Part shown: positions 265 through 29,787 of the stretch, piece after piece
How positions within the stretch are numbered: the first letter of the stretch is position 1
Layout: every line of letters starts with the position of its first letter
DNA from: Escherichia coli
GTDB taxonomy: Bacteria > Pseudomonadota > Gammaproteobacteria > Enterobacterales > Enterobacteriaceae
Strand: one strand, 5' to 3'
Assembly (NCBI RefSeq): GCF_048403405.1
Contig: NZ_CP183129.1
Length of the DNA stretch: 64,000 nt
The notes under the pieces: generated by a model
What the model was told of the DNA's origin: nothing
The model's database searches: none
The model's input: the letters and a program-made list of their open reading frames with translations, nothing else
Program-made: the position numbers and the translations under genes

Positions 265-271
265 GCGTTCA

Positions 272-922
272 TTAATTTGATTTATTTGCATCCATCAACG
301 CTTTTAACTGCTCCGGCGAAAACGGTGGTTTGCGTCGGTGCAGCATCGCATGGCAATTAGGGCACACAGGAAGCAAATCATTAACTGGATCCAGCTGGTA
401 ATCCTCTTTAATGGCTGAAAGCGGCACCAGGTGATGCATATGGATAAAGCCTTCTGCGATATCACCATAGATCTTCACCAGATCAACGCCGCATACGTTG
501 CACTGGCATCCATGATGTTCGACCGCTTTATCTCGGGCCTTTTTATCGCGTTCATAGCGGTTTACTGTCACCTTTATCGCCGCACCTTCAACGTATGTCT
601 CCTGCGACGGCAACTCATCCGGGAACAGAACGTCGGCTATGGTAGCTGCAGCGGCTTTATCCTGATGAATATGAAATCCCTGCTCTATGAGTAGCTTGAC
701 ACATTTAGATTTTATTCCGCCGGTGAAATCCGCAGGGGTAAATTGCGTCCCCGTCATCAATGTCGCTGCGATGCCAGCAATCGCCTTCGAGGGGTAACGT
801 CGGCCATGATATTCAATCTCATACAACCGTGCAGGCTGGAACTGATGAGTTTCTCCCGCATCCCATAAATGGATAGCTTCGATGATATACCGCCGCGGAA
901 GATGGTCGGGAAGTTTATTCAT
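272..922 (-). CDS. HNH endonuclease family protein with unassigned N-terminal domain
   Basis: 216-aa ORF; C-terminal HNH-type motif (HMHHLVPLS ... CPNCHAMLH) with Cys/His pairs; N-terminal ~120 aa unassigned. Confidence 0.55.
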   Translation of the reverse strand: MNKLPDHLPRRYIIEAIHLWDAGETHQFQPARLYEIEYHGRRYPSKAIAGIAATLMTGTQFTPADFTGGIKSKCVKLLIEQGFHIHQDKAAAATIADVLFPDELPSQETYVEGAAIKVTVNRYERDKKARDKAVEHHGCQCNVCGVDLVKIYGDIAEGFIHMHHLVPLSAIKEDYQLDPVNDLLPVCPNCHAMLHRRKPPFSPEQLKALMDANKSN

Positions 923-1523
923 GGGGAATACCCTTATACGTTCTCAGAACAGGCAGCAAAAAAACAAATGAGATCAAGGTAATATATCTTCACTTGCAGG
1001 CTTGAACAGCAGAAAATTTGCGAGCATGATCGCAATTATTTCACTGCCAGGGATATCAATGGCTTCCAGTAAATCGCTACAGCAGGCAATTGCCAATATA
1101 AAAATCTGGCATAAGGGTGAACAGCGCGCACCGCATAAGCCATTGTTATTGCTATACGTATTAGCGGGATACCTGAATGGACATCCACGCCTTTTCGATT
1201 ATTGTAGTGGAACAGTCTACGAGGATGCAGTTCGAAGTGAGTAAGTAAAGGTTGCTGGAAACGATCAATGCCGCCATACAATGATATTTGAGGATCAACA
1301 ATGAGTAATAAAAACTACGAAAGTCACCGCAAAGCGATTGTTAGTAAAGGTATACCACCCGCTCTATTAAATAGGCTCACCAATTCGGATGTTCAGGTGA
1401 TCAATACCTTCTTAACACGAGTGAGCAAACTGGAACTATCTCAACAAGAGAAAGACTGGATCATAAAAATCATCTCTATGGTTTAGAGAATTTCAGAATT
1501 TCAAGTAAAGACAATGCTGCATA

Positions 1524-2471
1524 TCAAGCATTCAGGATGGCTAGCGCTAAGCTCCTAAACCTGGAGTAAACCTCATCCCATGTGATCTTTCGCTCTCCAT
1601 ACACCATTGGCGAAACAAACTGCTGATAGCGCATCTGGTAGAGAGGATTGTTCGCCAACTCATCCAGTCCCATTTTTAGCTCATCAACTGGAGACGCGCA
1701 AAACTGCGGGTACTGGTTGCCGTAACGCTGAATGTCCTGCTCAATAGTTTGTTGAACAAAATCAACGAGCAGACTCATATCAACATGACTCGTCTCAACA
1801 ATACAGTTTGTATCGTAGATATGACGTACCAGCGATGCATCATCAAATCGCTCAACATCTCGCACAACTGCCGCAGTACGACGTAACATCGCCACCAGCT
1901 TTTCAGCCTGTGTGCTAATGATAGTTGCGCATGGAAACGCTGAAACAATAGCCGCTTTTCCCGTGATCCCTGTTACCAGTGAATGAATATCCCGTAATTC
2001 AGAAGGCTCCAGTAACTTCGCTTCCATCAATTCCAGCCGGATAAAAGGACGCAAACAAGGTGCCTGCACCACTCGCTGTGGATAACGAACAGGTATGTCA
2101 TTATAACGATATTCATCCCGCGTCACTTTTGGGTAATCATCATCAAAATTGAACACACCCGATGAAGCTATTGCACTGGAAACTGCCTGAACAATTTCTT
2201 TACGGGTATTTTTTCGCTGAGTGCGGGAAAGTGCCTGAAATGCATCCTTAGGCACCAGTTTGATATCCACATCTTCCGACATGCGATTAAGTGCGACACC
2301 TGATTTTGCCAGAGCGGTTCCTCCGGCAAACACCAATTGATGAGTATCGAACACCAGAGGTTTAAGCAATTGCAAAAGCTCAACGATATAGTGATCTTTT
2401 TCCACAATTGCGACAGACTCAATACCAAGCGCGTCAGCCACTTCAGAAAAAAGAGTGGTTAAATCATCCAT
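1524..2471 (-). CDS. AbiEii/DUF1814-like nucleotidyltransferase (putative type IV toxin)
   Basis: 315-aa ORF; N-terminal nucleotidyltransferase-like motifs (FAGGTAL ... SEDVDI); 8-nt overlap with upstream small gene. Confidence 0.6.
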   Translation of the reverse strand: MDDLTTLFSEVADALGIESVAIVEKDHYIVELLQLLKPLVFDTHQLVFAGGTALAKSGVALNRMSEDVDIKLVPKDAFQALSRTQRKNTRKEIVQAVSSAIASSGVFNFDDDYPKVTRDEYRYNDIPVRYPQRVVQAPCLRPFIRLELMEAKLLEPSELRDIHSLVTGITGKAAIVSAFPCATIISTQAEKLVAMLRRTAAVVRDVERFDDASLVRHIYDTNCIVETSHVDMSLLVDFVQQTIEQDIQRYGNQYPQFCASPVDELKMGLDELANNPLYQMRYQQFVSPMVYGERKITWDEVYSRFRSLALAILNA

Positions 2472-2859
2472 TTAATCTGCTGTTCCCTACAGATAATACG
2501 CGTTTAAAACGCCGGGGGGTTTTTATCTCGGGTGAAGCTGGGATCTGCGTAGAAGTACCGCTATTGTATGCCTGCGTTGCGCCAGCAAAACGATAGCGTA
2601 CTTTCAGGCGTTCCAGCGTTTCGACAATCACCGCTGAAGAGCCTCCGGGAGCCGCTGGCATTACCTTGCCTGTAATACCGTTCCGCCGTGCTTTGGTATA
2701 CACGCCATAACCAACCTTCAACAGTTGCCCTTCCCTGACAAGCTCGCGCAATACCCGACCAACCTGATCGTAGCCTGCAATATCTTTAAAGTCGTCACGA
2801 GTGAATACGTAACGTTTAGAACGTTTCAGTCGTGACTGAATGCGTGCTTTTATCGTCAT
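2464..2859 (-). CDS. AbiEi-like antitoxin / small DNA-binding partner of the nucleotidyltransferase
   Basis: Basic small protein overlapping the downstream nucleotidyltransferase gene; start chosen at ATG 2859, preceded by AGGAGG; ORF track allows start up to 2928. Confidence 0.45.
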   Translation of the reverse strand: MTIKARIQSRLKRSKRYVFTRDDFKDIAGYDQVGRVLRELVREGQLLKVGYGVYTKARRNGITGKVMPAAPGGSSAVIVETLERLKVRYRFAGATQAYNSGTSTQIPASPEIKTPRRFKRVLSVGNSRLNG

Positions 2860-2928
2860 ATTCGCCTCCTGAGTCATTGCATAAAGAGTAGCAAAAATAC
2901 GACATTTTAGATAGCAAACATACGACAT

Positions 2929-3783
2929 TCATTTTGCTGATAACGCTGACGGAAAGTGCTTCGCCACGATATCATTCATCTTCTCCACCAGATCCAAACG
3001 TTTGAAAGTGATATGCCCACTGCCCTTCTGAAAGTAGCGAATAGTGAACAACTCATCTTCGAAAATCTGCTGATGCGGATTATCGCGCACAAAATCCATA
3101 AACCGGATGGAGATATCATGCCGATTATCGGGGATAGGTTTGCCATCCAGCAAATAGAGCATACGCTCCAGATCGGCAAGCTGATCTCGCCGCCAGCCCC
3201 AGTTCAGGCTGTAGCCCCATCTGTCATGATTCACCAGATTGTTAACGATAATCTTCTTACCGAAATAACAGGGATTATTGGTTTTGTAGTCCCAGCTCAA
3301 TCCCTTAAATACATTGATAACCCCACGTTCGAAAACGTCCTGCTTATTGTGGTGGAGTTGTTCAAAGGTACTCAGGATGTTGGCTTCGCTAATCGCCGGG
3401 AGATCGCCCTCCTCCAGGTTCTTTGCCCACTGACTGCGAGCTTCGGCATCCATCAGAGTCAACATACCGGACTTCAGCATGAGCTCGCGCCAGATGCTGC
3501 GGTCGATATTGCGGGTGATCACCGGCATCGCTTTGTCGGTTGGCTGCATCAGCCAGCAGTCAAAGGCATATCCATTCCGCATTGCCCAGGTTCCAGCCAC
3601 ATCACCGCCAATACTGGATGTCAGGCTGGAGATATCATGAAGTTTTTGGATTAACGTCGCTATCTGGTTCAGTGCACTATCACGACCCGTCACGATACGC
3701 TCAATGCTGGTCGAGCAAATTAGCTCGTTATGATCGGTTAAGACTTCAGCTTCTGTTTGCATAATCTTTTGTCCGTATAGCAA
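2929..3783 (-). CDS. hypothetical island protein (family not recognised)
   Basis: 284-aa ORF co-oriented with neighbouring island genes; the overlapping plus-strand ORF 2956..3654 looks like antisense noise. Confidence 0.4.
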   Translation of the reverse strand: MLYGQKIMQTEAEVLTDHNELICSTSIERIVTGRDSALNQIATLIQKLHDISSLTSSIGGDVAGTWAMRNGYAFDCWLMQPTDKAMPVITRNIDRSIWRELMLKSGMLTLMDAEARSQWAKNLEEGDLPAISEANILSTFEQLHHNKQDVFERGVINVFKGLSWDYKTNNPCYFGKKIIVNNLVNHDRWGYSLNWGWRRDQLADLERMLYLLDGKPIPDNRHDISIRFMDFVRDNPHQQIFEDELFTIRYFQKGSGHITFKRLDLVEKMNDIVAKHFPSALSAK

Positions 3784-3873
3784 ATGCGCCAGCCATGAAC
3801 AGCAGGCGCATTATGCAGGGAGTTATGAGAGAAGTAATTTTGGCGATGTAAATCGGGAAGGAGACTCGCAGAT

Positions 3874-4215
3874 TCACCGTGCCGTGGTGTTATGGCAGCG
3901 GCGCAGCAGACCTGTAGCCTGTCGCGCCCGTAAAATATCGACCGCACGAAGATAAGGCGTCTGTTCCTTCCAGCTAAATCCTTTCCTGTCGATACGGATC
4001 AATTCGTACTTCTCCACCAGAAAATTGACGGCATCGACCAGAGTGATCCCGGCGTCTATGTGTTCCTGAATCACCTTTTCATTGTTGAATGGTGTGTCAT
4101 TAAGATTCAGCCCGTAGTGCTGCTCCAGTAGGCGGGTCAGTAATGTTTGCCAGACCACGACGGGCGACAGGTATGACGTCGTCGCCCGCAGCGTCGTTGC
4201 AGGTATAATTTTCAT
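3874..4215 (-). CDS. CbtA/YkfI/YpjF-family toxin
   Basis: 113-aa ORF strongly resembling CbtA (…[22 protein letters not shown]…[25 protein letters not shown]…[11 protein letters not shown]). Confidence 0.8.
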
Positions 4216-4245
4216 AACGATGTTCCGTATTAAGGAGGTTAAAAC

Positions 4246-4581
4246 TCAGCGTTGAGCGGGATAAATAGCGATATAGACGTAACCACTGGAACCCAGCGTA
4301 TCGGCTTCGCAGGTTAGTTCTTTGGCGTATAGCGTGACGGTACGTTGTTGGCAGGGGGAGAGTTCACCGTCAGCCAGTTTCAGCTCCAGTTGTTTCATCA
4401 GCACCGGAAAAGCCTGGTCGATATGCAGCAGATCCGGGGAGCTGAATTTCCCGGTGATTGCGGCCCGATCAGCCAGGTAATGCAGGTTATGTCTTTCCTG
4501 TACCAGTCGAGCAGTGAAGCGTGGTGTTACGGTACAGGGAAGCCCCCATTCTTGTTGCATGACCTTGTCCTTTTGCAGCAT
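4246..4581 (-). CDS. CbeA/YfjZ/YafW-family antitoxin
   Basis: 111-aa ORF resembling CbeA (WGLPCTVTPRFTARLVQE…LHYLADRA…DQAFPVLMKQLELKL…TVTLYAKELTC); immediately upstream of the toxin. Exact start uncertain. Confidence 0.8.
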   Translation of the reverse strand: MLQKDKVMQQEWGLPCTVTPRFTARLVQERHNLHYLADRAAITGKFSSPDLLHIDQAFPVLMKQLELKLADGELSPCQQRTVTLYAKELTCEADTLGSSGYVYIAIYPAQR

Positions 4582-5054
4582 TACAACCAGCCCCGTTCGG
4601 CAAAAGAGAGGACATCCCCCGCCCCAATAATGAAATGATCCAGCACCCTCACTTTCACCAAATCCAGTGTCTTAACAATATTCGTTGTAATAAGTCTGTC
4701 GGCCCGACTGGGTTCCGTCACGCCGGAGGGATGGTTATGCGCAAGGATCACTGCTGCGGCATTGTGCCGTAGCGCAGATTTCACAATCTCACGGGGATGT
4801 ACTTCTGTGCTGTTAATCGTGCCGAGAAATAGCGTTTCGTGTTCCAGCAGTCGGTTCTGGTTATCGAGGTAGAGCACAACAAACATTTCCCGCTCCTGTC
4901 GTGCCAGATGCAGTTGCAGCCAGGTTTTTGTGGAGTCAGAGGAAAGAAAAGATTCGCCAGGATTGCGTTGATATTTCTCCAGCAGACGCATCGCACGGCG
5001 GATAACGCGTTGTTCACTCACCGAAAATACCGGTGTTAGCATCAGTTCAGACAT
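4581..5054 (-). CDS. RadC-like JAB/MPN-domain protein (YeeS/YkfG/YfjY family)
   Basis: 157-aa ORF with JAMM-like motif (HNHPSG) and RadC-like context upstream of the CbeA/CbtA pair. Confidence 0.75.
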   Translation of the reverse strand: MSELMLTPVFSVSEQRVIRRAMRLLEKYQRNPGESFLSSDSTKTWLQLHLARQEREMFVVLYLDNQNRLLEHETLFLGTINSTEVHPREIVKSALRHNAAAVILAHNHPSGVTEPSRADRLITTNIVKTLDLVKVRVLDHFIIGAGDVLSFAERGWL

Positions 5055-5083
5055 CGTATTTCCTTTACTATTAATAGCGTTGT

Positions 5084-5902
5084 TTATGAGGCCAGTTGCA
5101 ACATGTTTTCAGCCATCACCCACAGGGCGCGGTTGAGCCTGACATCGCCGTCGATGCCTTTAATGGCGCGGGTGTGCGTGCGACCACCTTTTGCCGTCCG
5201 CCCGTTTAAACCACCTTTGATCAGGTTCTCCTGAATACGCTGGTAGGTCGTCCACAGATCGCCGGATTCATCCTGCCAGCGGCGGGGAGCCAGCAACTGG
5301 GATTCCGTCACCGGCTGGTGCTCTTCGCCAAAGCGGTACGTCAGCGCCGCCTTTGCCAGCGCCTGTTGCGCAGGGGGAGGCAGCATCAGCGACTGCATGG
5401 CATCGCGTTTCTCTTCTACCTGGTCAAAAACACTGAGGACTTCATAAGCGCCTTCAATCACTTTCTCCACCACATTGCCTTTATGCGGTACCCGTACTTC
5501 ACCAAACGACTCGCCGCAGACCAGTCCGTTACAACAAACAGATCGAAACAGCCCTGGCAGCATCTGATAAGAACTGGAACCGTCATGGCTGTTGAGCAGA
5601 ATAATTTCCGGCACCTGGTTGCGATTGATCTTGTCTTCCCGGCGCAGACGCAGCATGTGTTTTGTATGCTCACGTTTACCCACATCACGAACACGGGTCT
5701 GGCAGGCAAAAAAAGGATGAAATCCTTCACGCTGGAGGTTATCGAGCAGGGTAATGGTGGGAATATAGGTATAGCGTTCGCTGCGTGATTCGTGCTTATT
5801 TTCCCCGAATACGCTGGGGACATACTGCATCAATTCGTCATGCGTTAATGGGCGATCGCGACGGATTTGATTTACGCGGCCAAAGCGGCTGGCTAAATTC
5901 AT
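5084..5902 (-). CDS. DUF932-like island protein (YfjQ-like)
   Basis: 272-aa ORF; size and context match the DUF932 genes of CP4-type islands; assignment from memory, not searched. Confidence 0.5.
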   Translation of the reverse strand: MNLASRFGRVNQIRRDRPLTHDELMQYVPSVFGENKHESRSERYTYIPTITLLDNLQREGFHPFFACQTRVRDVGKREHTKHMLRLRREDKINRNQVPEIILLNSHDGSSSYQMLPGLFRSVCCNGLVCGESFGEVRVPHKGNVVEKVIEGAYEVLSVFDQVEEKRDAMQSLMLPPPAQQALAKAALTYRFGEEHQPVTESQLLAPRRWQDESGDLWTTYQRIQENLIKGGLNGRTAKGGRTHTRAIKGIDGDVRLNRALWVMAENMLQLAS

Positions 5903-6089
5903 GGTAAATTCCTTAATAAAGAATATAAAAAACAGGGCCGCAGCTTCTGAAAAATTGCGGCTAATTTAATGCGTGATTAAAACGGACGGTAGTATAGGTG
6001 GGATAAAATAACAGGTACGTGCAGATATTAAATTACATTCCGGCAGTGCATATATGAAAGTGATATAGTGCTGAAATAATACATATCTG

Positions 6090-6121
6090 AATTCTCCCGG
6101 TGATAGTCACCGGGAGAATTT
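6090..6121 (-). terminator. perfect hairpin downstream of the 317-aa gene
   Basis: Inverted repeat tctcccggtga-ta-gtcaccgggaga just past the stop at 6139, followed by a moderately T-rich stretch on the minus strand. Confidence 0.4.
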
Positions 6122-6138
6122 AAGTTTGAAATGACACC

Positions 6139-7092
6139 TCAACCACGGGATAATCTTGTTTCTATTCCCTGAACTCTTTCGTCTATTAACCTTTCAATAA
6201 CAGATATTTTATCTGACTTGTAAAATTCAACCAGAAAATCCAGACGCTCTTTATGCGTATCACTGATAGACTCCCGTTCCCGTTTTTCAGAAAGTTTACG
6301 TCTGAAGTTTTTTTGGTAAAACGCTTTATTTATTTTCTTTACCGCTTTCTGCTGGAGATCATCATCCGCTGACCATAAATCCAGCATGGAATAAACGGCG
6401 TGATAGGTTTCTACACTATTAAGTGGTTCCGGGATCTGAACGGGGTCCAACTGGTTTCCTATATTACTACCGTGCTCTTTCTGGAATTTATTAATGTAAT
6501 TATAAGCCCATATACAGACTTCGTCATTATCCTCATTAAGCCAGCGTAATTTTATTCTCTTATGTTCATTTGCCCTCCAGAATACAAGCCTCTCATATAG
6601 CCACTGTCTCATCAACGGTGCCTGATTAGTCTCAATATTAATATAGTCCAGTAATGCAACGATGATTGAGTATCTTTCGCTATGGCTTGCAGGAGAATCT
6701 GTTATTCCGGCTTTCTGATACCAGTTAATGTTTAAATTTGTGCCCAGCTTTTCGTTAATTGACTCCATACAGCGGTAATCAAGACACATCACGCCCCATA
6801 GCCAGAACGTCGCTCTTTCATTTTCTTTTAACCAACTAAAATATTTCTCCGGCAGAAGCATCGTATTAATCGACAGCTCCAGTGAGCGAATAAAATTACT
6901 TCGCTGAATGGGATCGGGATACCCGGCCTCGAGGGCTGTATTAATAATTCTCTCCGAAAGAGATGTATCTGGATTGTTCCCGTCAAACGCAAATTGATTT
7001 GCTCCCTGAATGTTTTTCCTGATGTACCAGAAAAGAAACCTGCTGGTTCGGATGTCCTTCACTGCTATTGATGAGCGCACATTAACGGCCAT
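6139..7092 (-). CDS. hypothetical protein, AT-rich orphan
   Basis: 317-aa ORF in strongly AT-rich DNA; no family recognised. Confidence 0.4.
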   Translation of the reverse strand: MAVNVRSSIAVKDIRTSRFLFWYIRKNIQGANQFAFDGNNPDTSLSERIINTALEAGYPDPIQRSNFIRSLELSINTMLLPEKYFSWLKENERATFWLWGVMCLDYRCMESINEKLGTNLNINWYQKAGITDSPASHSERYSIIVALLDYINIETNQAPLMRQWLYERLVFWRANEHKRIKLRWLNEDNDEVCIWAYNYINKFQKEHGSNIGNQLDPVQIPEPLNSVETYHAVYSMLDLWSADDDLQQKAVKKINKAFYQKNFRRKLSEKRERESISDTHKERLDFLVEFYKSDKISVIERLIDERVQGIETRLSRG

Positions 7093-7683
7093 TGTTCTAC
7101 CTCGTCATCCTTGTTAAATCAGTCGAAATCAATAGCGTAATTATGACGTGTTTTCGAAGTAAAACCGTAGCAATAAATCAATAAAAGTGGAAAACACGTA
7201 GTAATATCGTATTATTCCATAGTAATAGAGTACCATTAACGTAGTTTTTTATTTATCACCATACTCACAGCTTCCGCCCGTAGAAAACGGCTGGATAGTC
7301 TTCAATTTTTCCACGTATAGCCCTGGTGGCTTTACGGGTGAAACCTCCCAGGATAACGAGTTGACATCTGGAAGATGTCATTCATGACCGCACTCATAGA
7401 TTAAATCAATGTATTAATTATAACTTAAGTGTAAAACTCTTTGTCTTCAAGAACAGATAATTAACTACGAACACCAGTAAATACCGGGCTTCTACTCTTT
7501 TTATCACCCTTTCTTTATGAATCAACATTGCCGGTATTAATATTATGTTTATCACTCATTCATTAGATTCAGCATATAGAGGGATGACACCAGAGACAGG
7601 GAAAAGTAATCCAGATCGGCATAGTTCAGTGAAAAGTTACTACAGCACTTATGGATATGTAACCAACCACAAGGAACTGAAGC

Positions 7684-8298
7684 ATGAAACTGAATGAACG
7701 ATATGGCAAGCCTAATGCACACTATATGAAACGTCTGGAAGAGATTACCCGTTATGCGATGGATGATTACGCCAGAATACTGGCTTTCAGAGTGGATTTA
7801 TTACTGCCAGTGGATAATAGCCATAAAGGGTATGACTCAGCGGTTATTACCCGTTTTATAGCCTCACTGAAAGCGCAGATAGCCGCATATTTACAACGGC
7901 GCAGGAGAGACGGTAAACGTGTTTATCCCTGTAAGCTGCGATATGCATGGGTAAGAGAATTTGGTGAACTGAATGGCAACAAGCATTATCACATGCTGTT
8001 GCTGGTTAATCGGGAAGTATTCAGAAACACCATGCTGAATACGGAGAATTCAGCGCAACCTCGCGGATTGCTGGTGGGAATGGTGGCGCGGGCATGGGCT
8101 GTGGCGCTTAGGCGTACCGGAGATATGGCAAATAAAGTCCCCTTTCATTTACCGGGCGTCTCTTATGAACTTGATCGCAGAAATGGCACAAATACGGACT
8201 TTTTCCGCAGCTACATATATCACATCAGTTATCTGGCGAAGGAGTACACCAAAAACCACGATGACGGTGAACGTAACTTTGGTTGTAGTCAGGGATAA
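7684..8298 (+). CDS. YagK/YfjJ-family (inovirus Gp2-like) protein
   Basis: 204-aa ORF resembling YfjJ/YagK island proteins; sits beside an AlpA-like gene as in CP4-type islands. Confidence 0.55.
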   Translation: MKLNERYGKPNAHYMKRLEEITRYAMDDYARILAFRVDLLLPVDNSHKGYDSAVITRFIASLKAQIAAYLQRRRRDGKRVYPCKLRYAWVREFGELNGNKHYHMLLLVNREVFRNTMLNTENSAQPRGLLVGMVARAWAVALRRTGDMANKVPFHLPGVSYELDRRNGTNTDFFRSYIYHISYLAKEYTKNHDDGERNFGCSQG

Positions 8299-8415
8299 GT
8301 AATTTATTACCGGAGAAGTGATTGTAATGGCGGAGTATGCAACATCATCTTAAATCAACGGGTTAGTGTTGCTGCTCCTGTCTTTTATCAACGTAAAGAC
8401 AGAAGGACAATCGTC

Positions 8416-8634
8416 ATGAGCAATCAACTGAATACCGATACTGACCTGATGAATGACAAACTGGTGACGATGGCATTTATTACCACGTTTACTGGCCTGA
8501 CTGACAAATGGTTTTATAAACTGATTAGTGAAGGCAAGTTTCCAAAGCCTATCAAACTGGGGCGTAGTTCCCGCTGGCGGGAAAGTGAAGTTAAACGCTG
8601 GCTGACGGAACGTATTGAAGAATCCCGCTATTAA
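8416..8634 (+). CDS. AlpA-family phage/island transcriptional regulator
   Basis: Small HTH protein (…FITTFTGLTDKWFYKLISEGKFPKPIKLGRSSRWRESEVKRWL…); true start may be the internal Met at ~8449. Confidence 0.65.
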   Translation: MSNQLNTDTDLMNDKLVTMAFITTFTGLTDKWFYKLISEGKFPKPIKLGRSSRWRESEVKRWLTERIEESRY

Positions 8635-8835
8635 TCCCCTGACACTATCTCTACACGCTTTACCCGTAACGCTATATCAGTGAGCGCCTGACAGGACCGT
8701 TGCGGTGCATCTATCGACGCGTAACTTCATTATACCCGGATGAAATACATTTCGTTTAACGTTGTCGAAAAATAATTAACCGGGGAATAGCCTCCTTATT
8801 TAGCAGGAATTCCCCGGATGCTGCTACAGGTAAAA

Positions 8836-9621
8836 TTAGGAATTAAATGTCCAGCTCCCCGTATCGGTCACAATATCAGCTTCAATGATACGGTCACACT
8901 TCATATATTTGAACGTAGCCACATCACCGAATTTATATTTGGCTGGCAGGGTTCTGTTACCGACGCTCTCCATTTTACAGTTCCCTCTGTTTACCCGAAT
9001 GGATTTCAGCACCACGTTGTCATCAGTGATAGTGAGCTGAATAACACCATATTTGGTATTCCAGCCTTCATTGCTGACGGAGCTGCCGAACTGAACTTTA
9101 AACGGTGGTGTCGTAGATTGCTGTGCCTGCTGTTGCTGAGAGGGATCAGGTTTATTAGCCTGCTGGCTACCAACGCCATTAATGCCATTCTGAAGGAGGC
9201 TTCTGGAAACCTTAATGGTACCCGGCTTGCATGATACTGTGCTGGTTTCCTGCCCCATTGCATTCATGACAGTGTAATAAGCATCACCTGTACCATCATA
9301 TTCTGAGTAATTGACTGCAACCGCGCCTTCGATATCTTCATTTTCTCCACGTAATGTGAAAGAAGCGGTTCCTGCTCCCGGATTAGCCGCCAGAATCTGT
9401 TTCGCTTCGCCGGAAGGAATATCCAGTTTAATAACAGAGCCGCTCTCTTCGGAGTCACCGCCAGGATTTTCAAAACTGATATAAACGGTATTGCTGACGT
9501 GGCTGAGTGTCATTTGCTCGCCGTTATCAAGCATACATTGCAGGTCATAGGCCCCGACTGCATAAGCAGGGTGGAATGCAAATAAAGATACAAACAATGC
9601 AGGTATAATGATTAGTTTCAT
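8836..9621 (-). CDS. secreted protein of unknown function
   Basis: 261-aa ORF with an N-terminal signal-peptide-like segment (MKLIIIPALFVSLFAFHPAYA) and a Gln-rich linker. Confidence 0.5.
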   Translation of the reverse strand: MKLIIIPALFVSLFAFHPAYAVGAYDLQCMLDNGEQMTLSHVSNTVYISFENPGGDSEESGSVIKLDIPSGEAKQILAANPGAGTASFTLRGENEDIEGAVAVNYSEYDGTGDAYYTVMNAMGQETSTVSCKPGTIKVSRSLLQNGINGVGSQQANKPDPSQQQQAQQSTTPPFKVQFGSSVSNEGWNTKYGVIQLTITDDNVVLKSIRVNRGNCKMESVGNRTLPAKYKFGDVATFKYMKCDRIIEADIVTDTGSWTFNS

Positions 9622-9632
9622 TAAGCACTTCC

Positions 9633-10645
9633 CTATCCAAAAAAATGGTCCCAGGCATTACCAGCCCACTCGATAAGTTTGTCTTTACCCTTACGGGTAA
9701 GCTCTTTGACAGGCTTTGGTAACGGAAAAGAATCAATAACGTCGTCGAGTATCCCGGAGATTACGCTGCCGAAGCCGTTTTTTGCTTCCGTCTTGACCTC
9801 TTCGGTTTTGAACTCATCCTTAAACTGCGAAGCCGTGCTACTTTTAGCCCGATCAGGCAAAGCCCGAATAATAGTCTCTACCAGACGAAGAATGTTGTAG
9901 CCCTCATCGGCGGAGACAGGTGTCACCGGATAGTGCGTAAAACCAAATCGTTCAGTAATGTAGGCTTCTTTCTTTTCGATGTTGATGCGCTGTGCAGGAG
10001 ATGGCTGATGCAGATGAGTATCCCACTCGCGGAATGGCTCAATTTTATCAACCTGGTTAAGGACGAATAAAACGCGCTCACCCCCACCAGCAGGGAGCAG
10101 AACATTGTTGTAGAAATGCTCATCCGCAGAAAAGGCCCGATCGTCACCTTTTATTACCCACAGGATGAGATCCAGGGAGGGAAGCAAATTGCGGTATAAA
10201 TCTTCATACTCCTATCCCGCCGGGCATTCTCACCGACACCAGGTATATCAATTATCTTCAGCGAATGTTTTCCGAAGCGTATATGCAATTCCTGAACTTC
10301 ACGAGTACATGCCTCAACGTCGCTAACTGCACAAACCTCCCCTTTAAACAGCGCATTACATACGCTGCTTTTCCCCGCGCCAGTTTTTCCCATGGCACCA
10401 ATCACGGGTTCATAGTCGATGGCTTCACTGATTTTGTTCAACAGCTTTTCCCGCAGTGGCTGAGGGAAAATATCAAGAATATCCCTGATGTCGGGTATGT
10501 GCGGTGTGCTATCACCTTTTTGCTCGTTGCTACCATTACGTTCTGGAAATATATTGCTCCACATTCCCAAAATCCCGCCTTCCCTTCTGGTGACGCCACT
10601 GGCATCAGTAATCATCCGGCCTTCGCCCTTTACCGGGTCATCCAT
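9633..10645 (-). pseudogene. YeeP/YfjP/YkfA-family GTPase, frameshifted
   Basis: G1 P-loop (GAMGKTGAGKSS) and G3 (DIPGVGE) in ORF 10154..10645; G4 (NQVDK) in overlapping ORF 9633..10187 in another frame. Confidence 0.6.
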
Positions 10646-10684
10646 ACGAGGTCTCCTTTTTTAATTTGAAATAAACGTTGTCTG

Positions 10685-11368
10685 TTACTCTCTGAAGGTC
10701 TGAATTACGTCACTTATGAAACGAAAGTGAGGGAGGGCTGAAATAAACTCTTCACTGGCAGTCAGAGCATCAAGTTCAGGCTTTCTGCGGAAAGAGGTAT
10801 CCAGAACGGTTACGGCGTTAACGTCTTCCATCCGAAACACCTGTAAATTTCTGGTGCGGGTAGCAACAAGAAACCAGTTTTTGGACTGAAATATCAGACG
10901 GCGGGGAGCTACTGCTTCGTAGCTTTTACCGTTAACCAATAATGTAACGGCGCGGTAGTCGCGGATAGCTTCCGCCAGTTTCAGAAAACAGGCAGTCTGC
11001 GTGACGGGAGAAGATAATGCCCCATGCCCAATAAGACACGGCGATACGCCGGAATTGCTGGCAATCAACCGGATCAACTTGCGGTTCTGAGCCGGAATGA
11101 TTCCTGAAATTCCTGAATTACGTATAAACGCAAATGTATTGGGTAAGTGCTCCCGGCCTGTTTGGCGGATAAGTCGGTAACTTCCGCTGCGATGCTCAAG
11201 ATCCAGATGGATCAGGCGTTGCTGAAAATCCCGCTGTAGGGTGCGTTCTGAGACACCAAATTCATCAGCTAATACTTTAAGCTCCAGAGATTCACCAGCC
11301 AGTAAGCGGCTGATAATGACTGATAGCCTGACAGACAGGCGGTCATGATGATCATGCTGTGTTTTCAT
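10685..11368 (-). CDS. HTH-WYL domain transcriptional regulator (YfjR-like)
   Basis: N-terminal HTH (LKVLADEFGVSERTLQRDF) followed by a WYL-like region; start set at internal Met 11368. Confidence 0.55.
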   Translation of the reverse strand: MKTQHDHHDRLSVRLSVIISRLLAGESLELKVLADEFGVSERTLQRDFQQRLIHLDLEHRSGSYRLIRQTGREHLPNTFAFIRNSGISGIIPAQNRKLIRLIASNSGVSPCLIGHGALSSPVTQTACFLKLAEAIRDYRAVTLLVNGKSYEAVAPRRLIFQSKNWFLVATRTRNLQVFRMEDVNAVTVLDTSFRRKPELDALTASEEFISALPHFRFISDVIQTFRE

Positions 11369-12036
11369 AGTGGGGACAGTCCTGTTCTCCCAAAATATCA
11401 TGGTGTTGATACGGGAGATTATGCCGTACAGGTACGACACGTTATGTCGTACTAAAGGGGAGTTGATTGAAAAAATAGTGGGGTAACTGCAGTTATCTAA
11501 TACTCTGAAATATAAGTTAATTGATTAACTCTAAGGCAAGGTCATCATCACAGAAACGACACAACCTGTCGCGTTGCGCATTGTAAGAAAGAGGGTATCT
11601 GATGCGTACGAAAATGATTTAGTTCTGAAAATAGTTGCAAATGAATCAATACATTCTTATTTTTACAAAAAGTTGGAATGCATAAGCCAATTGACCATTA
11701 GCAATGACAAATCCTTCTAGCGCACTTCGTTGATTAAATATAGATTTAGGTATCCAATCTATTCACACATAACGATTTGCTCCGCTGAACTAACCGAGCA
11801 ACACTGCAAAAAAATATACCACGCCGACAATCAAGAAAAGTACTCACCAGTATAAAGTATCAAGTAAATCAATGCGATGTAGAATAAACACCGGCCCTTA
11901 ATGTGATAGGAATCACATTCCTTCAGCCCTGCATTCCGGCATAATCATATCGGAAGGTTAAACTGCTCACGCCATATCCCTTTTTAGGGGGATATCTATG
12001 AATACCGTTTCAATCCACTAATACATAAGGTAATAA

Positions 12037-12579
12037 ATGGACGCAGAGAAAATTCAGTCAGATATAGATGCTCTTTTGACATACATGAACGATGACATGG
12101 AGAATCTTGGTGAAACAATAAAAACCGTTACATTTGGATTCGAAACAGGCCAGAACGACCGCATTGCTATAGACGAGTTGCTTCACTGGCGGGAAGAGTA
12201 TTTGTTCAAAATCATCAATATTTGCCATTCCCGCTCTCTATTACGTAAGGACTTTGGAGATTTTGAGCATGTATCCTTGACAGAAGAGGGTCAGAGTCGT
12301 GCTATATCAATCAAACACGGAAAAAATCGCTCTTACGAGTTAGGGGCCAGCATGCAAATCGCAACGTTAAATGTTCATGGGCCTGCACAGGTTGGTAACG
12401 GTAATACGCAAAACATCCACAATGTATTTAATCAATTACTTCAGCAGATCGAGAAATCTTCCGCTTCTGATGAAGAAAAACAGGAAGCCAAAAAACGCCT
12501 GGCGAAATTTTTGGAACATCCTTTGGTTGGTTCTATTGTCGGCGGTCTTGCTGGTTCCCTTCCTGGTCTAATGGGATGA
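12037..12579 (+). CDS. hypothetical protein, 180 aa, Gly-rich C-terminus
   Basis: First gene of a compact plus-strand cassette; 4-nt overlap with the next gene; C-terminal glycine-zipper-like tail (GSIVGGLAGSLPGLMG). Confidence 0.45.
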   Translation: MDAEKIQSDIDALLTYMNDDMENLGETIKTVTFGFETGQNDRIAIDELLHWREEYLFKIINICHSRSLLRKDFGDFEHVSLTEEGQSRAISIKHGKNRSYELGASMQIATLNVHGPAQVGNGNTQNIHNVFNQLLQQIEKSSASDEEKQEAKKRLAKFLEHPLVGSIVGGLAGSLPGLMG

Positions 12580-12848
12580 TGGAAGATCTTAAAAAAACGA
12601 TCCGACTGCGCTGTGCATTCTGCCGTTCGGAACAGTTCGCCTTACCTTACGAGGGTTACTCCCCCCCAAGTCATAGCTTTGTCGTTTGTGCCAACTGCGG
12701 GAGGGAAAACGACGTCACATCTCTGCTCATCGTTGCTAAATCGAAAGGGATGGAAATAGCTGAAGAGTATGCTGATGAACTAGTTGAACAGATGACGAAA
12801 GATCTGTTTAAAACTTTTAAAAACCGTAAATTCATAAAGATAAAGTAA
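12576..12848 (+). CDS. small zinc-ribbon protein
   Basis: 90-aa ORF with two CxxC pairs (CAFCRSEQF … CANCGREN); translationally coupled to the upstream gene. Confidence 0.45.
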   Translation: MMEDLKKTIRLRCAFCRSEQFALPYEGYSPPSHSFVVCANCGRENDVTSLLIVAKSKGMEIAEEYADELVEQMTKDLFKTFKNRKFIKIK

Positions 12849-12875
12849 CTGTTACAAAAGTTACATGGAGGACAT

Positions 12876-13850
12876 ATGTCAAGGACTAAAGTACTTTTTG
12901 CTTATTGCCATGAGTTAGATCGGTGTTTATCGATTGATGAAGCAAGAACAGAATTCTTTTCAAAAAAACCGCAAGACAGACAACGATTCACTTTCTCCTG
13001 CAGCGATCGCAACTGCAATGTCACCATTAGTGGTGTTAATTACCATGTCAAAGCGGAAGATGGTGAAAAATTCAAAGTTGCACATTTTCGTTCTCCACAT
13101 CCCCATAATCTGGGATGTGAATGGATGCAGTTTTCTGAGGAAGCTAACCAGCCCCGTCAGGCTAGTGAAACAGAGGCTGACTACACAGAAAGAAAGGCAA
13201 GGCAGAAGCTAAATGATTTTATCAATTGCTTCGATCCTTGTACTGATGAGACAGATTCTGGGCAAAAAAAAACTGGACAACTTACATCACTTTCGCAGGT
13301 AAACCATCTCGCCAAAGACAATGATTTGTCTAACGATAAATCCCACAAGTGGAGCCGTTATACACGAACTAACCAGCTACAGCGCCTAGTAGACACCTGG
13401 CAGGAAGCCAAGAAAACTCTTACATACGACGAGTTCAGAACATTAAAACTAAGAGTCACAAACTACGGAAAGGTTTATTTCCATGAATACATAACGCATA
13501 TTCAGAAAGGGCTAAAAAACCAATATGAAGGCGTCATTTTCGGCGGTGGTTCTTTGGTTAAACGTTATGGTCGTGGCTTTCTCATTCACTTTTTCGATAA
13601 ACATAACGATAAACCAATTCGTCTGTATATCGATAAGAACCTTATGGAGAAAGGGCGATTCAGTCATTATATTGATGAAATATTATCAACAGAGAATGTG
13701 AGATATTTTCGTGTCTTTTTGTTAAACCCAGAAGTTTCCGAAAAAAAAGACCGAACTGGCAAGCCAGTTATCAACCTTGAGATATCAAGCCTGCGACAAT
13801 TGGCGATTTACTACGAACTCAACTCTTCTGAAGATAATGATTTTGTTTGA
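12876..13850 (+). CDS. hypothetical protein, 324 aa, Cys/His-rich N-terminus
   Basis: Long ORF in an AT-rich cassette; contains A9 and A8 homopolymer tracts; no family recognised. Confidence 0.5.
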   Translation: MSRTKVLFAYCHELDRCLSIDEARTEFFSKKPQDRQRFTFSCSDRNCNVTISGVNYHVKAEDGEKFKVAHFRSPHPHNLGCEWMQFSEEANQPRQASETEADYTERKARQKLNDFINCFDPCTDETDSGQKKTGQLTSLSQVNHLAKDNDLSNDKSHKWSRYTRTNQLQRLVDTWQEAKKTLTYDEFRTLKLRVTNYGKVYFHEYITHIQKGLKNQYEGVIFGGGSLVKRYGRGFLIHFFDKHNDKPIRLYIDKNLMEKGRFSHYIDEILSTENVRYFRVFLLNPEVSEKKDRTGKPVINLEISSLRQLAIYYELNSSEDNDFV

Positions 13851-13887
13851 CAGTAGCATGCTAAATTTATAAAAAGGAGAAGTATTT

Positions 13888-14181
13888 ATGGTCCCTGGAT
13901 ATGTATACATATTAATCAACACAAGCATGCCTGGTTTAATTAAAATAGGTCGAACGCTACGCGACTCACGCATGCGTGCGCGTGAACTCTTCTCCACCGG
14001 AGTGCCAACACCGTTTCAAGTTGCTTTTGAGCTGTTCGCTGAACAACATGAAGCTCTCGAGGCTACGGTACATAATGAATTGAATGATTTTCGAGCTAAT
14101 GTGGCACGCGAGTTTTTCCGCTACCCACTCGACAAGGCCGTTGCATTACTAATTCAGCTGCCCCCTCCAAAACGCCACTGA
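13888..14181 (+). CDS. T5orf172/GIY-YIG-like domain protein
   Basis: N-terminus YVYILINTSMPGLIKIGRT … RARELFSTGVPTPF resembles the T5orf172 (GIY-YIG-like) domain; 97 aa. Confidence 0.45.
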   Translation: MVPGYVYILINTSMPGLIKIGRTLRDSRMRARELFSTGVPTPFQVAFELFAEQHEALEATVHNELNDFRANVAREFFRYPLDKAVALLIQLPPPKRH

Positions 14182-14188
14182 ACAGTAT

Positions 14189-14539
14189 GTGGCCGAAGAT
14201 ATAACACAACGGCTTAGAGAAAAATATCCTTTATATATACCTCCAGAAATTGTAGCGGTGAGGATTGTTCAAATGCCCGGAGGTGTCTGGCTAGAGATAA
14301 CGACTGAGAAAAAAATCGCTAGATACCTCGTAGATCAGATAATCCAACGAACAGATCTAGCATTCATTGTTGACACAGACGAGGCATTCTTTCGGTCAGA
14401 AGATGATGTCCGTTTAAATGCGAATAAACTGGTAAATGATTACGATATTTACTCTATCGTCATGACTACGGACCTCTTTCATGATTACGCCTGCCAACAA
14501 ATAACACGCGCGCATCATGCCCAGAGAAATTTCGTCTGA
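14189..14539 (+). CDS. hypothetical protein, 116 aa
   Basis: ORF 8 nt after the previous gene in a different frame; could be a separate gene or a frameshifted continuation. Confidence 0.3.
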   Translation: MAEDITQRLREKYPLYIPPEIVAVRIVQMPGGVWLEITTEKKIARYLVDQIIQRTDLAFIVDTDEAFFRSEDDVRLNANKLVNDYDIYSIVMTTDLFHDYACQQITRAHHAQRNFV

Positions 14540-14649
14540 TGCAACAGGCGTAACGATACCCCAAATTCGTTACTCACAGTAATCCATGTCCAGTTTGGGT
14601 GTAAATATCACGCATAATCGTGCCATTCATATTTAGAGATCATCCGGCA

Positions 14650-15770
14650 TAATCAATCTGCCAACGAAGGAGATCGCTACGCGTAAAGCCCGTTTTACTG
14701 AGCATCAGATCATCGCTGTGATTAAGTCAGTTGAAGCCGGACGAACCGTTAAAAATGTCTGCCGGGAGGCCGGTATCTCTGAAGCCACCTACTACAACAG
14801 GAAGTCCAGATACGGCGGCATGGAAACTTCTGATATTAAAATCTTGAGGACGAAAACCGCCGTCTCAAACAGATGTTTGCTGACCTGAGTCTGGAGAGCC
14901 GAGCGCTGAAAGACGTTATCGAAAAAAAGCTTTAAAACCAGCCTTTAAGCGTGAGCTGGTCACTCATCTGATAACGACATTCGGACTCAGTATCAGTCAG
15001 GCCTGCCGGAGTCTGAACCTGAGCATAACGTTTACCGTTACCGCCCGGATACCACGCGTGATGAACCCGTTATTGCCGCCCTGTAGGCTGCGGCTGAGCG
15101 ATACCCACGATACGGCTTTCCGAAGCTTTTCCAGATTCTGCGACGGCAAGGATACTCGTGGAATCACAAAAGGCTCCACCGTATTTACTGTCTGCTGAAG
15201 CTGAATTTTCGCCGTAAGGGCCAGCAACGGCTGCCGGTACGCATCCCTCACCACTGGCTACGCCAGAAGCGCTGAACCAGTGATGGTCTGTCGATTTCAT
15301 GCATGATGCGCTGGCCTGTGGCCGTCATTTTCGCACGTTCAATGTTATTGATGACTTTAATCGTGAGGCGTTATCGATTGAAATCGATCTGAATCTGCCA
15401 TCTCTGCGGGTGGTCCGTGTACTTGACAGGATCGCGGCAAACCGCGCTTATCCGGTCATGCTGCGCATGGATAATGGTCCGGAATTTATCTCTCTGGCGC
15501 TGGCTGAATGGGCAGAGATACACGCAGTAAAACTGGAGTTCATCCAGCCGGGTAAGCCGACGCAGAACGCTTTCATTGAGCGTTTTAACAGGATATACCG
15601 TACAGAAATACTCGATTTTTATCTGTTCAGAACGCTGAATGAAGTACGGGAAATTACGGAGAAATGGTAATCAGAATATAACTGTGAACGCCCGCATGAA
15701 TCACTGAACAATATGACACCGGAGGAATACCGACTTCACAATTATTTGGCCGGGATCTCAAAAAATGCAT
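14650..15770 (+). mobile_element. degraded IS3-family insertion sequence (IS407-group-like), OrfA/OrfB remnants
   Basis: OrfA-like HTH/leucine-zipper frame (…EATYYNRKSRYGG…LEDENRRLKQMFADLSLE) and OrfB-like DDE-core frame (DNGPEFIS…FIQPGKPTQNAFIERFNR…ERPHESL) interrupted by several frameshifts; no intact N-terminus. Confidence 0.7.
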
Positions 15771-16091
15771 GGAACTAAAACGGGTCTATTTACAGGGCCA
15801 TCAGTTAGAAAATGTGGCGTACAACGATAAACAGTTTGGTTGCATAAAAAAACGTAAGAGTTGGTTATCATTCTTTCAACGTAAGGGAATTACAGTAGCG
15901 GTAGGAAAAACTGATAGGTTATTTTACATTGAATTCAAAAAACTGTTTATTTAAGCCGTTAGCGATAAGTTTCATTGTAATTTAGCCGGAAAATGTTCCA
16001 TTGGGAAAACTGAATTGAGACTAATATTATATTAGATGAGAATATTTCTGATGTAAATATACCGAGGAATGGAGGCATCCCTCGGTATATG

Positions 16092-18167
16092 TTAATTCAC
16101 ACCCAGCGCCTTATAAACCGCATCAACCGGGTCTGAGTAAAAACTCACCTGAAACTTGGTAAATAACTCTGCCGGAACCGTTGGAATATCCATAGCCGAG
16201 GACATCGGCAACAGAACCCGTTTTGCGCCGCTGTCGAAGGCGAGCTGTAAACTGGCGGCAAGATCCTGCACCGGGTTAATTACTCCACCAAGGGTCATAC
16301 TGCCCAACACCACCATCTGTTCCTGCACCGGCTTTGCCAGCAATATCGAACATAAAGCGATAAGCGCAGCAAGACTGGTTGCGGTGCTAGGGCCAGTATT
16401 ATGCAGTTCAACGACATGAAGGTGATATTCATGATCAGAGAATTTCGCTGCCGCGCTTACCCGATTCAAATTGCCTTTGAAGTAATCGAAACCGACGCGG
16501 ATAGCTTCTTTCGCGGAGGTATTTGAACCCAGGCCCGATACACTATGCTTACCATTACCGGCAGTCATCTGCGTTTCAAAACGATACAGCCCGGTCATAC
16601 CGCTTTCTGCCTGAGTGACCAAATGCACAACGCCCGGCTTTGGCATTCCGGCAGGAATTAGTTCGCTGCCGCCCTGTTCCGGTACGCTTACAAAAAACTC
16701 TTCCAGCGTTTCGTTATCGATGTAGCTAAAGTTCACATCGAAGAACTCCAGGCCGCCCAGTTTTTTAAGTTGCTCTTTCACTCGACGACGAACTTCCATC
16801 GCATAGGTCAGGCAGACTCGTACATCTTCTTTGCTGTACGCGCCATCGGGATGCATGAGTTTTAACAACCCCGACACTGTACGTCGAACAGCAATCACGT
16901 CACGCTGATTGAGGTTATTTCCCAGCTTGAAGAATTTATCAATTGCATCGGAGAAGCTACGTTTACGCATCTCGCGCATGTATTCAGCGAGATAATCCGT
17001 AATCAAACCATAGCGATTGGTGAAAAATTCCGGGCGCATCTTAGGAATTTCCCAACCAGGAATATAGGCATGGAAGCGGTCAAAAAATGCAGTATCAATC
17101 ATCGCATCCGGGAACGGTGCTAGCAGATGGCTGGTTTTGACCAGTGTATCTACGCTCTGATTGATGTTGCCAACAAACACCATGGAGGCTTTGCCTTCAA
17201 TGGAGTCCCGACCACGAGAGAATGAGCCTGATGCCATGTAATCCTTCATGATCTGCACGCCATCTTTGTCTTTGAAGGTGATCCCTGCCACTTCATCAAA
17301 CGCGACGACGTCCCACATTCCCACAAGACCAATCTGCCGGCTGGCCATGTTGTAAAACAAGTTCGCCACCGTGGTTTGCCCGCCAGATACCAGCAGGGAG
17401 TTAGGAGAGCACTCTTTATAAACATGACTCTTACCTGTACCACGTGGACCAAGCTCGCAGACGTTATAGTTGTTTTCCACAAAGGGAATCATGCGAGTAA
17501 TCAGATGCCACTTGGTACGCTGCTCAATATTTGCAGGTTCCATCCCGACCGAACGTAACAGCACATCAATCCACTGGTCGCGATCAAACTGCTTGCGGGC
17601 TTCAAATACCTCGTCCATATCCATATTTGGCATCTGGATCGGCTTCAGTGTGAACAGCGAGAAAGGAGACGTTTTTTGCCCCTCTTCATAAAAGTAGTTC
17701 ACGGTGATCATGCACCAGATGCCACCAGTCAGCAGTTTCTCGTTGTCTTTCACCATCTGCGACGGCACCAGGGCATCTTTAATGCCAAGGTTAGAGAGCT
17801 GGGCTTCGTAAACGTCTTTCTTCTGATTTAGCTTTACCGTGACCTTATCGATAATCTTGTAAGAACCACGCTCGCGAATTAGTGATTTCACTTTTTCTGC
17901 TTCATCCGGGCGGACGTAGTTATCAGAAAGAATACGCTTAACCGACTGTAGCCCCTGCTCGACAACCTCATCGTCATCGGAGGCACAGTACATACCGAGT
18001 AGATATTCCAGTACGTAAACCGGAACATTCGCCCCTTCTTTAAGTTGCTTAGTCAGATCCTTACGCACCACGCGACCGCGAAAGTGCTGATTCAACAATG
18101 AATCCAGGTCCTGAGCCAACACAGAGGCCGTTTCCATGTTACTGGCTGAGTTATCCTGCTGTTGCAT
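16092..18167 (-). CDS. brxL: BREX BrxL (Lon-like protease-domain ATPase)
   Basis: 691-aa ORF with Walker A (LGPRGTGKSH) and C-terminal Lon-protease-like domain; last gene of the BREX operon. Confidence 0.85.
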   Translation of the reverse strand: MQQQDNSASNMETASVLAQDLDSLLNQHFRGRVVRKDLTKQLKEGANVPVYVLEYLLGMYCASDDDEVVEQGLQSVKRILSDNYVRPDEAEKVKSLIRERGSYKIIDKVTVKLNQKKDVYEAQLSNLGIKDALVPSQMVKDNEKLLTGGIWCMITVNYFYEEGQKTSPFSLFTLKPIQMPNMDMDEVFEARKQFDRDQWIDVLLRSVGMEPANIEQRTKWHLITRMIPFVENNYNVCELGPRGTGKSHVYKECSPNSLLVSGGQTTVANLFYNMASRQIGLVGMWDVVAFDEVAGITFKDKDGVQIMKDYMASGSFSRGRDSIEGKASMVFVGNINQSVDTLVKTSHLLAPFPDAMIDTAFFDRFHAYIPGWEIPKMRPEFFTNRYGLITDYLAEYMREMRKRSFSDAIDKFFKLGNNLNQRDVIAVRRTVSGLLKLMHPDGAYSKEDVRVCLTYAMEVRRRVKEQLKKLGGLEFFDVNFSYIDNETLEEFFVSVPEQGGSELIPAGMPKPGVVHLVTQAESGMTGLYRFETQMTAGNGKHSVSGLGSNTSAKEAIRVGFDYFKGNLNRVSAAAKFSDHEYHLHVVELHNTGPSTATSLAALIALCSILLAKPVQEQMVVLGSMTLGGVINPVQDLAASLQLAFDSGAKRVLLPMSSAMDIPTVPAELFTKFQVSFYSDPVDAVYKALGVN

Positions 18168-18177
18168 AACGCCTCAC

Positions 18178-26112: not shown

Positions 26113-26160
26113 ATGAAGTCCTGAAAAGGGCAGACAATGTCTGCCCTGAAAATGGGGAAA

Positions 26161-29775: not shown

Positions 29776-29787
29776 TGCTGTCGTCTT

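Follow-up and report, generated by a model that had tools for sequence, protein, structure and literature searches.

Positions given below refer to the window, the whole 64,000-nucleotide stretch of Escherichia coli DNA that was analyzed. At leuX, the window carries an island of ∼33 kb, which extends from leuX to a truncated nanS gene that lies just beyond the window start and was read in the genome of E. coli strain TUM14771. Within this island, a GTPase gene is broken into two overlapping minus-strand open reading frames (ORFs) and is flanked on both sides by intact genes:

9633..10645, minus strand: the whole GTPase pseudogene, 1013 bp, as delimited by alignment with the allele of strain Nissle 1917 (the intact allele is 1014 bp long and codes for 337 aa)
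10154..10645, minus strand: 5' ORF of 163 aa, in which 144 native residues precede 19 out-of-frame residues and the stop
10213..10214, minus strand: position of the 1-bp deletion in codon K145, where GATAAGG has become GATAGG
9633..10212, minus strand: 3' out-of-frame part, aa 146-337, with the G4-like NQVD motif, the remaining G domain, and the C-terminal helical hairpin
10395, minus strand: V84A substitution, immediately N-terminal of the P-loop
10685..11368, minus strand: intact HTH-WYL regulator, homologous to YfjR (42% identity), 39 bp upstream of the GTPase start
8836..9621, minus strand: 261-aa protein, intact, starting 11 bp past the GTPase stop

The two ORFs are the halves of one 337-aa GTPase gene split by the loss of a single base. 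When the intact protein was compared with the window by tblastn, it matched in two collinear segments that lie in different frames, aa 1-148 and aa 146-337, the latter at positions 10211-9636 with 100% identity. Nissle 1917 carries the intact 1014-bp gene, whose product is WP_000342613.1 (“GTPase family protein”), and this strain, ATCC 25922, ABU 83972, and many more match the window at 99.7 to 99.8% over a span that is 1 base longer. In the global alignment with the Nissle allele, the window differs by R49H (position 10500), V84A (position 10395), and one missing A. The missing base belongs to the AA dinucleotide of codon K145, of which the remaining A is at position 10213, and the sequence GATAAGG is found at this site in all 8 other sampled alleles. 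Putting the A back yields an uninterrupted 337-aa ORF. His49 is the usual residue at its position in the sampled alleles; Ala84 occurs only in the window's allele among the nine sampled, with the family otherwise having Val or Ile at this position.

The 5' ORF includes the disordered N-terminus, the G1 P-loop (GKTGAGKSS), the switch-I Thr residue, and the G3 motif (DIPGVGE), and it is recognized by the Pfam MMR_HSR1 model (E = 1.3e-12; 48 bits, with the cut-off at 21.9). Its product continues from ...ARRD into the 19 out-of-frame residues RSMKIYTAICFPPWISSCG and stops at 10154-10156. A TAG is created in the downstream frame by the deletion itself, and from there this frame stays open to the normal stop at 9633; the ORF listed in it, 9633..10187, has a TTG start at 10187 and 184 aa, contains the G4-like NQVD, and shows no Pfam match of its own. 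The gene is thus a pseudogene by frameshift in the usual sense, in that its split into collinear halves can be traced to a single indel relative to an intact homologue. The NCBI PGAP pipeline calls exactly 9633-10645 “GTPase family protein, frameshifted” in TUM14771, a genome that in BLAST matches the window with 1 mismatch in 30.8 kb and, over the other 34.4 kb, with 2 mismatches and 2 gaps. A compensating second copy of the GTPase gene was sought within the window, and none was found.

These data confirm the first-pass annotation of the locus as a GTPase gene split by a frameshift: the overlapping minus-strand ORFs, the PGAP call, and the collinear tblastn halves all agree with it, and the G1 and G3 motifs in one ORF and G4 in the overlapping downstream ORF of another frame were seen as it described them. 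Its placement of the indel near 10150-10190 has to be corrected, as this interval is merely the overlap of the two ORFs and the true site lies 25 to 60 bp outside it, on its upstream side. The alignment with an intact homologue that it proposed for this purpose, run here against the Nissle allele, located the loss of the A in K145, at position 10213.

As read from the sequence, the predicted product keeps G1, switch I, and G3 and would lack everything from residue 145 onward, including the family-invariant Gln198-x-Asp200, the remainder of the G domain, and the C-terminal hairpin. Because all of this is absent, loss of function is a reasonable inference, and the truncated product is not expected to be capable of acting as a GTPase. 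The 5' fragment, with its P-loop and switch regions, might retain nucleotide binding or exert a dominant effect.

The intact protein is predicted to be a TRAFAC GTPase of the Era/EngA(Der)/TrmE class with a helical C-terminal extension. A sequence profile of its G domain matched EngA (E = 5e-17) and Era (E = 6e-16) among the PDB entries, and the AlphaFold model (mean pLDDT 79) consists of a G domain at residues ∼60-262 and a C-terminal helical hairpin at residues 282-336; about 45 to 50 extra N-terminal residues, compared to the YfjP and YkfA proteins of E. coli K-12, are disordered in the model. In an alignment of 27 sequences that included YfjP and YkfA, the invariant residues were Gly86, Lys87, Gly89, Gly91, Lys92, and Ser93 of G1, Thr114, Asp133, Pro135, and Gly136 of G3, and Gln198 and Asp200 of the G4-like motif. 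The family motifs (G1, GxxGxGKS; G3, DxPG; and G4-like, xQxD) are therefore all found here, with the G4-like one out of frame in the window. The nearest structures found by Foldseek were Irga6/Irgb6, Era, GIMAP7, and Toc34, with TM scores of ∼0.4 to 0.5 and 12 to 21% identity, so that the modeled likeness is one of fold class only and does not imply membership in any of these families. Membership in the Era or Der families proper was rejected, as all NCBIfam scores fell well short of the curated cut-offs (54.5 bits for the Der model, cut-off 306.7, and 43.6 bits for the Era model, cut-off 237) and the matches involved the G domain only; the KH domain of Era and the second G domain of Der are absent from the island GTPase. 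The Eleos defense system was rejected as well: the PADLOC match to LeoBC (E = 3.1e-11) covers only profile positions 48-197 of 601, the match to LeoA covers only positions 43-176 of 559, and no partner genes of the LeoA/LeoBC systems adjoin the GTPase gene.

The family comprises 1727 homologues across the Enterobacterales at E ≤ 1e-5, most of them named “GTPase family protein” or “50S ribosome-binding GTPase.” The PHROGs matches were only to families of unknown function. In the literature searched, no functional characterization of yfjP, ykfA, yeeP, or yfjR was found, nor were any biochemical data on family members, including GTP binding or hydrolysis. In one preprint, deletions of yfjP and yfjR had no notable resuscitation phenotype compared with that of alpA, which was then pursued. 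The protein may be a nucleotide-dependent switch that serves island housekeeping or regulation rather than a cargo function.

The island around the GTPase gene contains several further features:

33043-33127: tRNA-Leu(CAA) gene leuX
∼31576-32843, minus strand: tyrosine integrase pseudogene, adjacent to leuX
16092-30992: BREX-1 operon, with two embedded genes
20775-22459, minus strand: genes for an AAA ATPase (373 aa) and a 189-aa protein, inside BREX-1, between pglX and pglZ
14673-15778: degraded IS3-family transposase gene, frameshifted and with an internal stop, between the GIY-YIG gene and brxL
13888-14181: GIY-YIG protein, 97 aa; three hypothetical genes also lie between the IS3 remnant and the WYL gene
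1059-1208: fragment (150 bp) of a gene for a phosphorothioated-DNA-binding restriction endonuclease, which in sister islands is intact and 873 bp long

Past the 261-aa gene, the island continues with the genes for AlpA, a Gp2/YfjJ-like protein, a 317-aa hypothetical protein, DUF932, RadC, YeeU, CbtA, and DUF4942, followed by AbiEi/AbiEii, the phosphorothioate-dependent restriction endonuclease fragment, and an HNH nuclease. This distal end (1059-1208 and 1524-2859) is variable, with AbiEi/AbiEii here and McrBC or RelE/ParE-CopG elsewhere. The two genes embedded in the BREX operon match the PADLOC models HEC-01A (E = 1e-181) and HEC-01B (E = 5e-100) and, more weakly, AbiL and AriA-type ATPases. 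The GIY-YIG protein matches approximately the first 91 of the 212 positions of PDC-S57 (E = 2.5e-28) and could represent a shortened or minimal form of this candidate defense gene.

A block consisting of DUF932, the 317-aa hypothetical protein, Gp2, AlpA, the 261-aa protein, the GTPase, and the WYL regulator is conserved in other strains. The DNA past the WYL gene (10685-16200 in the window) varies: it holds hypothetical genes, GIY-YIG, and BREX in the window, whereas Nissle and CU39ES-1 have an ABC-three-component system there, plasmid pMTY18781-2 and MS1266 a DEAD/DEAH helicase, SA186 a TIR protein and a type I restriction-modification (R-M) system, and 503829 DUF6575. In Yersinia ruckeri, the homologue is found between a type I R-M cargo and the genes for WYL, YfjT, antirestriction, RadC, and CbeA/CbtA proteins. 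The combination of a conserved block with varying DNA past the WYL gene indicates that the GTPase gene is an island core gene located at the edge of an exchangeable defense slot. Plasmid pMTY18781-2 (NZ_AP023207.1, 93.8 kb; positions 1-9014 of locus L009) carries the whole core block, with an intact GTPase gene and the helicase cargo, so this island module is not restricted to chromosomal tRNA sites. The island GTPase is also present, at 97.7% identity, in two genomes of ∼4.83 Mb deposited as “DH5alpha” (NZ_CP026085.1 and NZ_CM135829.1). Strain K-12 presumably lacks the leuX-island type seen in the window, and mislabelling or contamination may account for these two records.

The 39-bp and 11-bp gaps that separate the WYL, GTPase, and 261-aa genes are the basis for assigning them to one putative operon; a promoter and terminator scan of 8300-12100 gave counts that were not above those of shuffled controls and says nothing either way on this point. 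In such an arrangement, the GTPase lesion could affect the 261-aa gene through polarity. The 261-aa protein, which has the same accession as in Nissle, begins with a hydrophobic, signal-peptide-like stretch, contains a Q-rich linker, and produced no Pfam match. It matches phrog_36014 (E = 9e-21) at its C-terminus, and a homologue of its N-terminal domain, 36% identical, is encoded in Providencia (positions 3855-4346 of locus L017), two genes upstream of the GTPase homologue. Adjacency to a WYL gene was rejected as a universal feature of the family: it is seen in E. coli and Yersinia ruckeri, and BLAST found no WYL gene in the Scandinavium, Providencia, and P0095 contexts.

The distribution of the lesion was assessed with a 60-bp probe centered on the deletion site, which was searched against 5426 complete E. 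coli genomes. The locus was found in 208 genomes. In 200 of them, the alignment spans 61 bp, corresponding to the intact spacing, and the other 8 have the deletion, namely, TUM14771, GN02461, 4621, 98205, MS 69-1, TUM1226, OZ121091, and OX030728. Over 1301 bp, these carriers match the window at 100% identity, and over 4801 bp of adjacent cargo, they are essentially the same; the RefSeq frameshift annotation was read in one of them. Pairwise dN/dS values among four intact alleles, and of each of these against the repaired window allele, were about 0.15 to 0.25, which indicates that the gene is normally under purifying selection. V84A is the only further private substitution of the carrier clade. 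The allele in the window can thus be regarded, with a high degree of confidence, as a genuine recent loss of function of a core gene in a CP4-57/P4-type island at the tRNA-Leu gene leuX. Codon K145 has lost one A, which leaves 144 native and 19 wrong residues before the stop at 10154; in the proposed scenario, the mutation would have had a single origin, followed by inheritance in a small clone (8 of the 208 gene-bearing genomes), and would be younger than the BREX-bearing island architecture, with one private substitution as the only earlier decay.

The loss is not the only one in this gene. In CU39ES-1, an independent deletion of a G affects the GGG run at nt 507-509 of the GTPase gene, and in 503829, an IS100 insertion past nt ∼910 replaces its 3' end. 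Nissle 1917 assembly NZ_CP022686.1 has an intact GTPase gene and WYL and DUF932 genes annotated as frameshifted (positions 7187-7866 and 1589-2403 of locus L002), so that different lineages would lose different core genes, unless these frameshifts are assembly errors. At least three independent GTPase disruptions (the A deletion, the G deletion, and IS100) among 208 genomes, together with the frameshifted WYL and DUF932 genes of NZ_CP022686.1, could be taken to mean that inactivation of the GTPase, or of its WYL partner, has been repeatedly selected, for instance, if the module carries a cost or disturbs the neighboring defense cargo. However, the large majority of genomes have an intact gene, with dN/dS values of 0.15 to 0.25, and every lesion is limited to a single clone or strain, which is what neutral or slightly deleterious loss of accessory genes predicts. 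Recurrent adaptive loss is therefore unlikely, since the intact alleles are under purifying selection, and the scattered inactivations fit sporadic decay of an accessory gene. A related and slightly less improbable, albeit still quite speculative, idea is that the WYL, GTPase, and 261-aa genes form a functional module of CP4/P4-type islands that senses infection or controls the adjacent defense slot, through a GTPase with a fold class reminiscent of the eukaryotic IRG and GIMAP immune GTPases. If so, the repeated losses (the three GTPase lesions and the Nissle WYL frameshift) would be a product of selection rather than of simple decay.

An error of sequencing or assembly, with the gene truly intact in the strain, was a possibility raised in the first-pass annotation, and single-base indels are the most frequent kind of error in long-read assemblies. 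It is very improbable here because 8 of the 208 genomes have the same deletion, in separately deposited assemblies of different isolates (from Japan, the reference strain MS 69-1, and the OX and OZ series). Moreover, the site is an AA dinucleotide without a homopolymer run, and the clade also has the private substitution V84A, as expected for a real inherited allele. The least probable reading, a programmed -1 ribosomal frameshift or a split gene with two functional, cooperating halves, could point to a downstream frame that is -1 and uninterrupted between the deletion site and the normal stop, to the ∼60-nt overlap of the frames, and to the use of such frameshifting by IS3-family genes of the same region, but the spacing at the site is intact in 200 of the 208 genomes, all fully read non-carrier alleles other than those of CU39ES-1 (with its own frameshift) and 503829 (with IS100) are single ORFs, and the split lies within the G domain, separating G3 from G4. 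The zero frame of the overlap contains no X XXY YYZ heptamer, so programmed frameshifting was rejected, as was internal re-initiation at the TTG at 10187, which has no upstream Shine-Dalgarno sequence.

With the deletion accepted as a real inherited allele, its age relative to the other damage in the island can be considered. In the carrier lineage, the integrase, the IS3 element, the restriction endonuclease fragment, and the GTPase are damaged, and the WYL and 261-aa genes that flank the GTPase are intact. The cargo junction (hypothetical genes, GIY-YIG, dead IS3, and brxL) is common to 20 genomes, 12 of which lack the deletion and are 99.0 to 99.2% identical. Two of these 12, 23CRST029 and MS20657, were examined; both have the BREX operon and the dead IS3 of the window, together with intact GTPase and integrase genes. 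The dead IS3 is accordingly older than the GTPase lesion, because these ∼1%-diverged sister islands share the degraded copy. The window integrase is broken twice, by a premature stop at approximately codon 39 and by the loss of 1 bp from an A-run near 32481. This dead allele is found in the same 8 genomes and two others; in Res13-Lact-PER13-34, it accompanies a wholly different island interior, with a JetD/Wadjet-like system and a WYL gene and without the GTPase. Such a distribution suggests that the integrase remnant is older than the present island contents, although transfer by recombination would give the same pattern, and that the contents have been swapped by recombination between fixed ends. 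Dating is complicated by island-wide mosaicism, as the nearest relative of the GTPase region is the Nissle island and those of the cargo are other BREX islands.

Given its occurrence in 8 of 208 genomes, the single private substitution, the dN/dS values, the intact neighbors, and the sister islands, the frameshift is recent and clade specific, and it looks like the youngest of the damage in this island. The first-pass view that the lesion marks an old, eroding part of the island is not supported, in light of the same 8-in-208 distribution, dN/dS, intact neighboring genes, and intact GTPase in the two sister islands. The contrast that it drew with the intact BREX operon was misplaced: the most degraded genes, the integrase and the IS3 remnant, are those that flank BREX, and they look older than the recent lesion in the GTPase gene.

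In itself, the window copy is an ordinary frameshift pseudogene that was already known, as the public annotation flags it as frameshifted. It has a practical use, since the A deletion combined with V84A provides a clean clonal marker for a small E. coli lineage. Of some wider relevance is the placement of this GTPase family as a conserved core gene at the edge of a slot that exchanges BREX, ABC-three-component, TIR plus type I R-M, and helicase systems; with this conserved position beside exchanged defense systems, the intact alleles would be sensible candidates for functional study.

One of the closest known systems is the island of Nissle 1917, ATCC 25922, and ABU 83972, strains that have the same leuX-type island core as the window. 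Their product WP_000342613.1 represents the intact allele, with 99.7% DNA identity and the same flanking genes, and has Arg49, Val84, and the extra A that keeps the frame, in place of His49 and Ala84 in the window. In Nissle, the neighboring cargo is the ABC-three-component system instead of BREX.

Among the K-12 proteins, the relatives are YfjP of CP4-57 and YkfA of CP4-6, both of them intact 287-aa putative GTP-binding proteins, unlike the frameshifted window copy. In BLASTP comparisons spanning 282 to 285 aa for both, the intact island protein was 42% identical to YfjP (over 285 aa; E = 4e-76) and 43% identical to YkfA (E = 3e-78). The homology extends over the full length, and tblastn finds matches in all three K-12 elements, so the proposed membership in the YkfA/YfjP/YeeP family is well founded, with 42 to 43% identity over ∼285 aa. 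The shared features are G1, G3, the xQxD G4-like motif, and a C-terminal helical region ending in WDxFF. The genomic location agrees as well, in an island between leuX and a truncated nanS that includes DUF932, RadC, and CbtA/CbeA genes, and DUF932, a YfjR-type WYL regulator, RadC, and CbeA/CbtA homologues are likewise present in the YfjP and YkfA islands. In contrast to the ∼43% identity of the GTPase to YfjP and YkfA, the DUF932 protein of the window's island is 83 to 84% identical to YfjQ/YafZ. The gene order also differs, being WYL, GTPase, 261-aa protein here and GTPase, DUF932, WYL in K-12, so that the GTPase gene adjoins the WYL regulator in the window, whereas yfjP and ykfA adjoin DUF932. 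Judging by these sequence comparisons, the GTPase is best described as a diverged member, or paralogue, of the YfjP/YkfA family.

The resemblance to the K-12 yeeP pseudogene, which the first-pass annotation had invoked, holds for the family, for the fate, and for the status of an island pseudogene but not for the type of lesion. The yeeP gene (b1999, in CP4-44) is annotated as a 426-bp pseudogene and shows homology to aa 151-336 only in tblastn. It is a 5'-truncated 3' remnant without a frameshift, from which the entire G1-G3 half is gone, and it lies beside fragments of IS2 and yoeA, whereas the window copy is complete but for one base. Orthology with yeeP was rejected, as the 34 to 39% identity over the C-terminal half is no higher than the 42 to 43% identity to YfjP and YkfA and no flu or yeeR gene adjoins the window copy. 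The yeeP remnant and the window copy can thus be viewed as members of the same family that met the same fate, inactivation, by a 5' truncation in one case and by the loss of a single base in the other.
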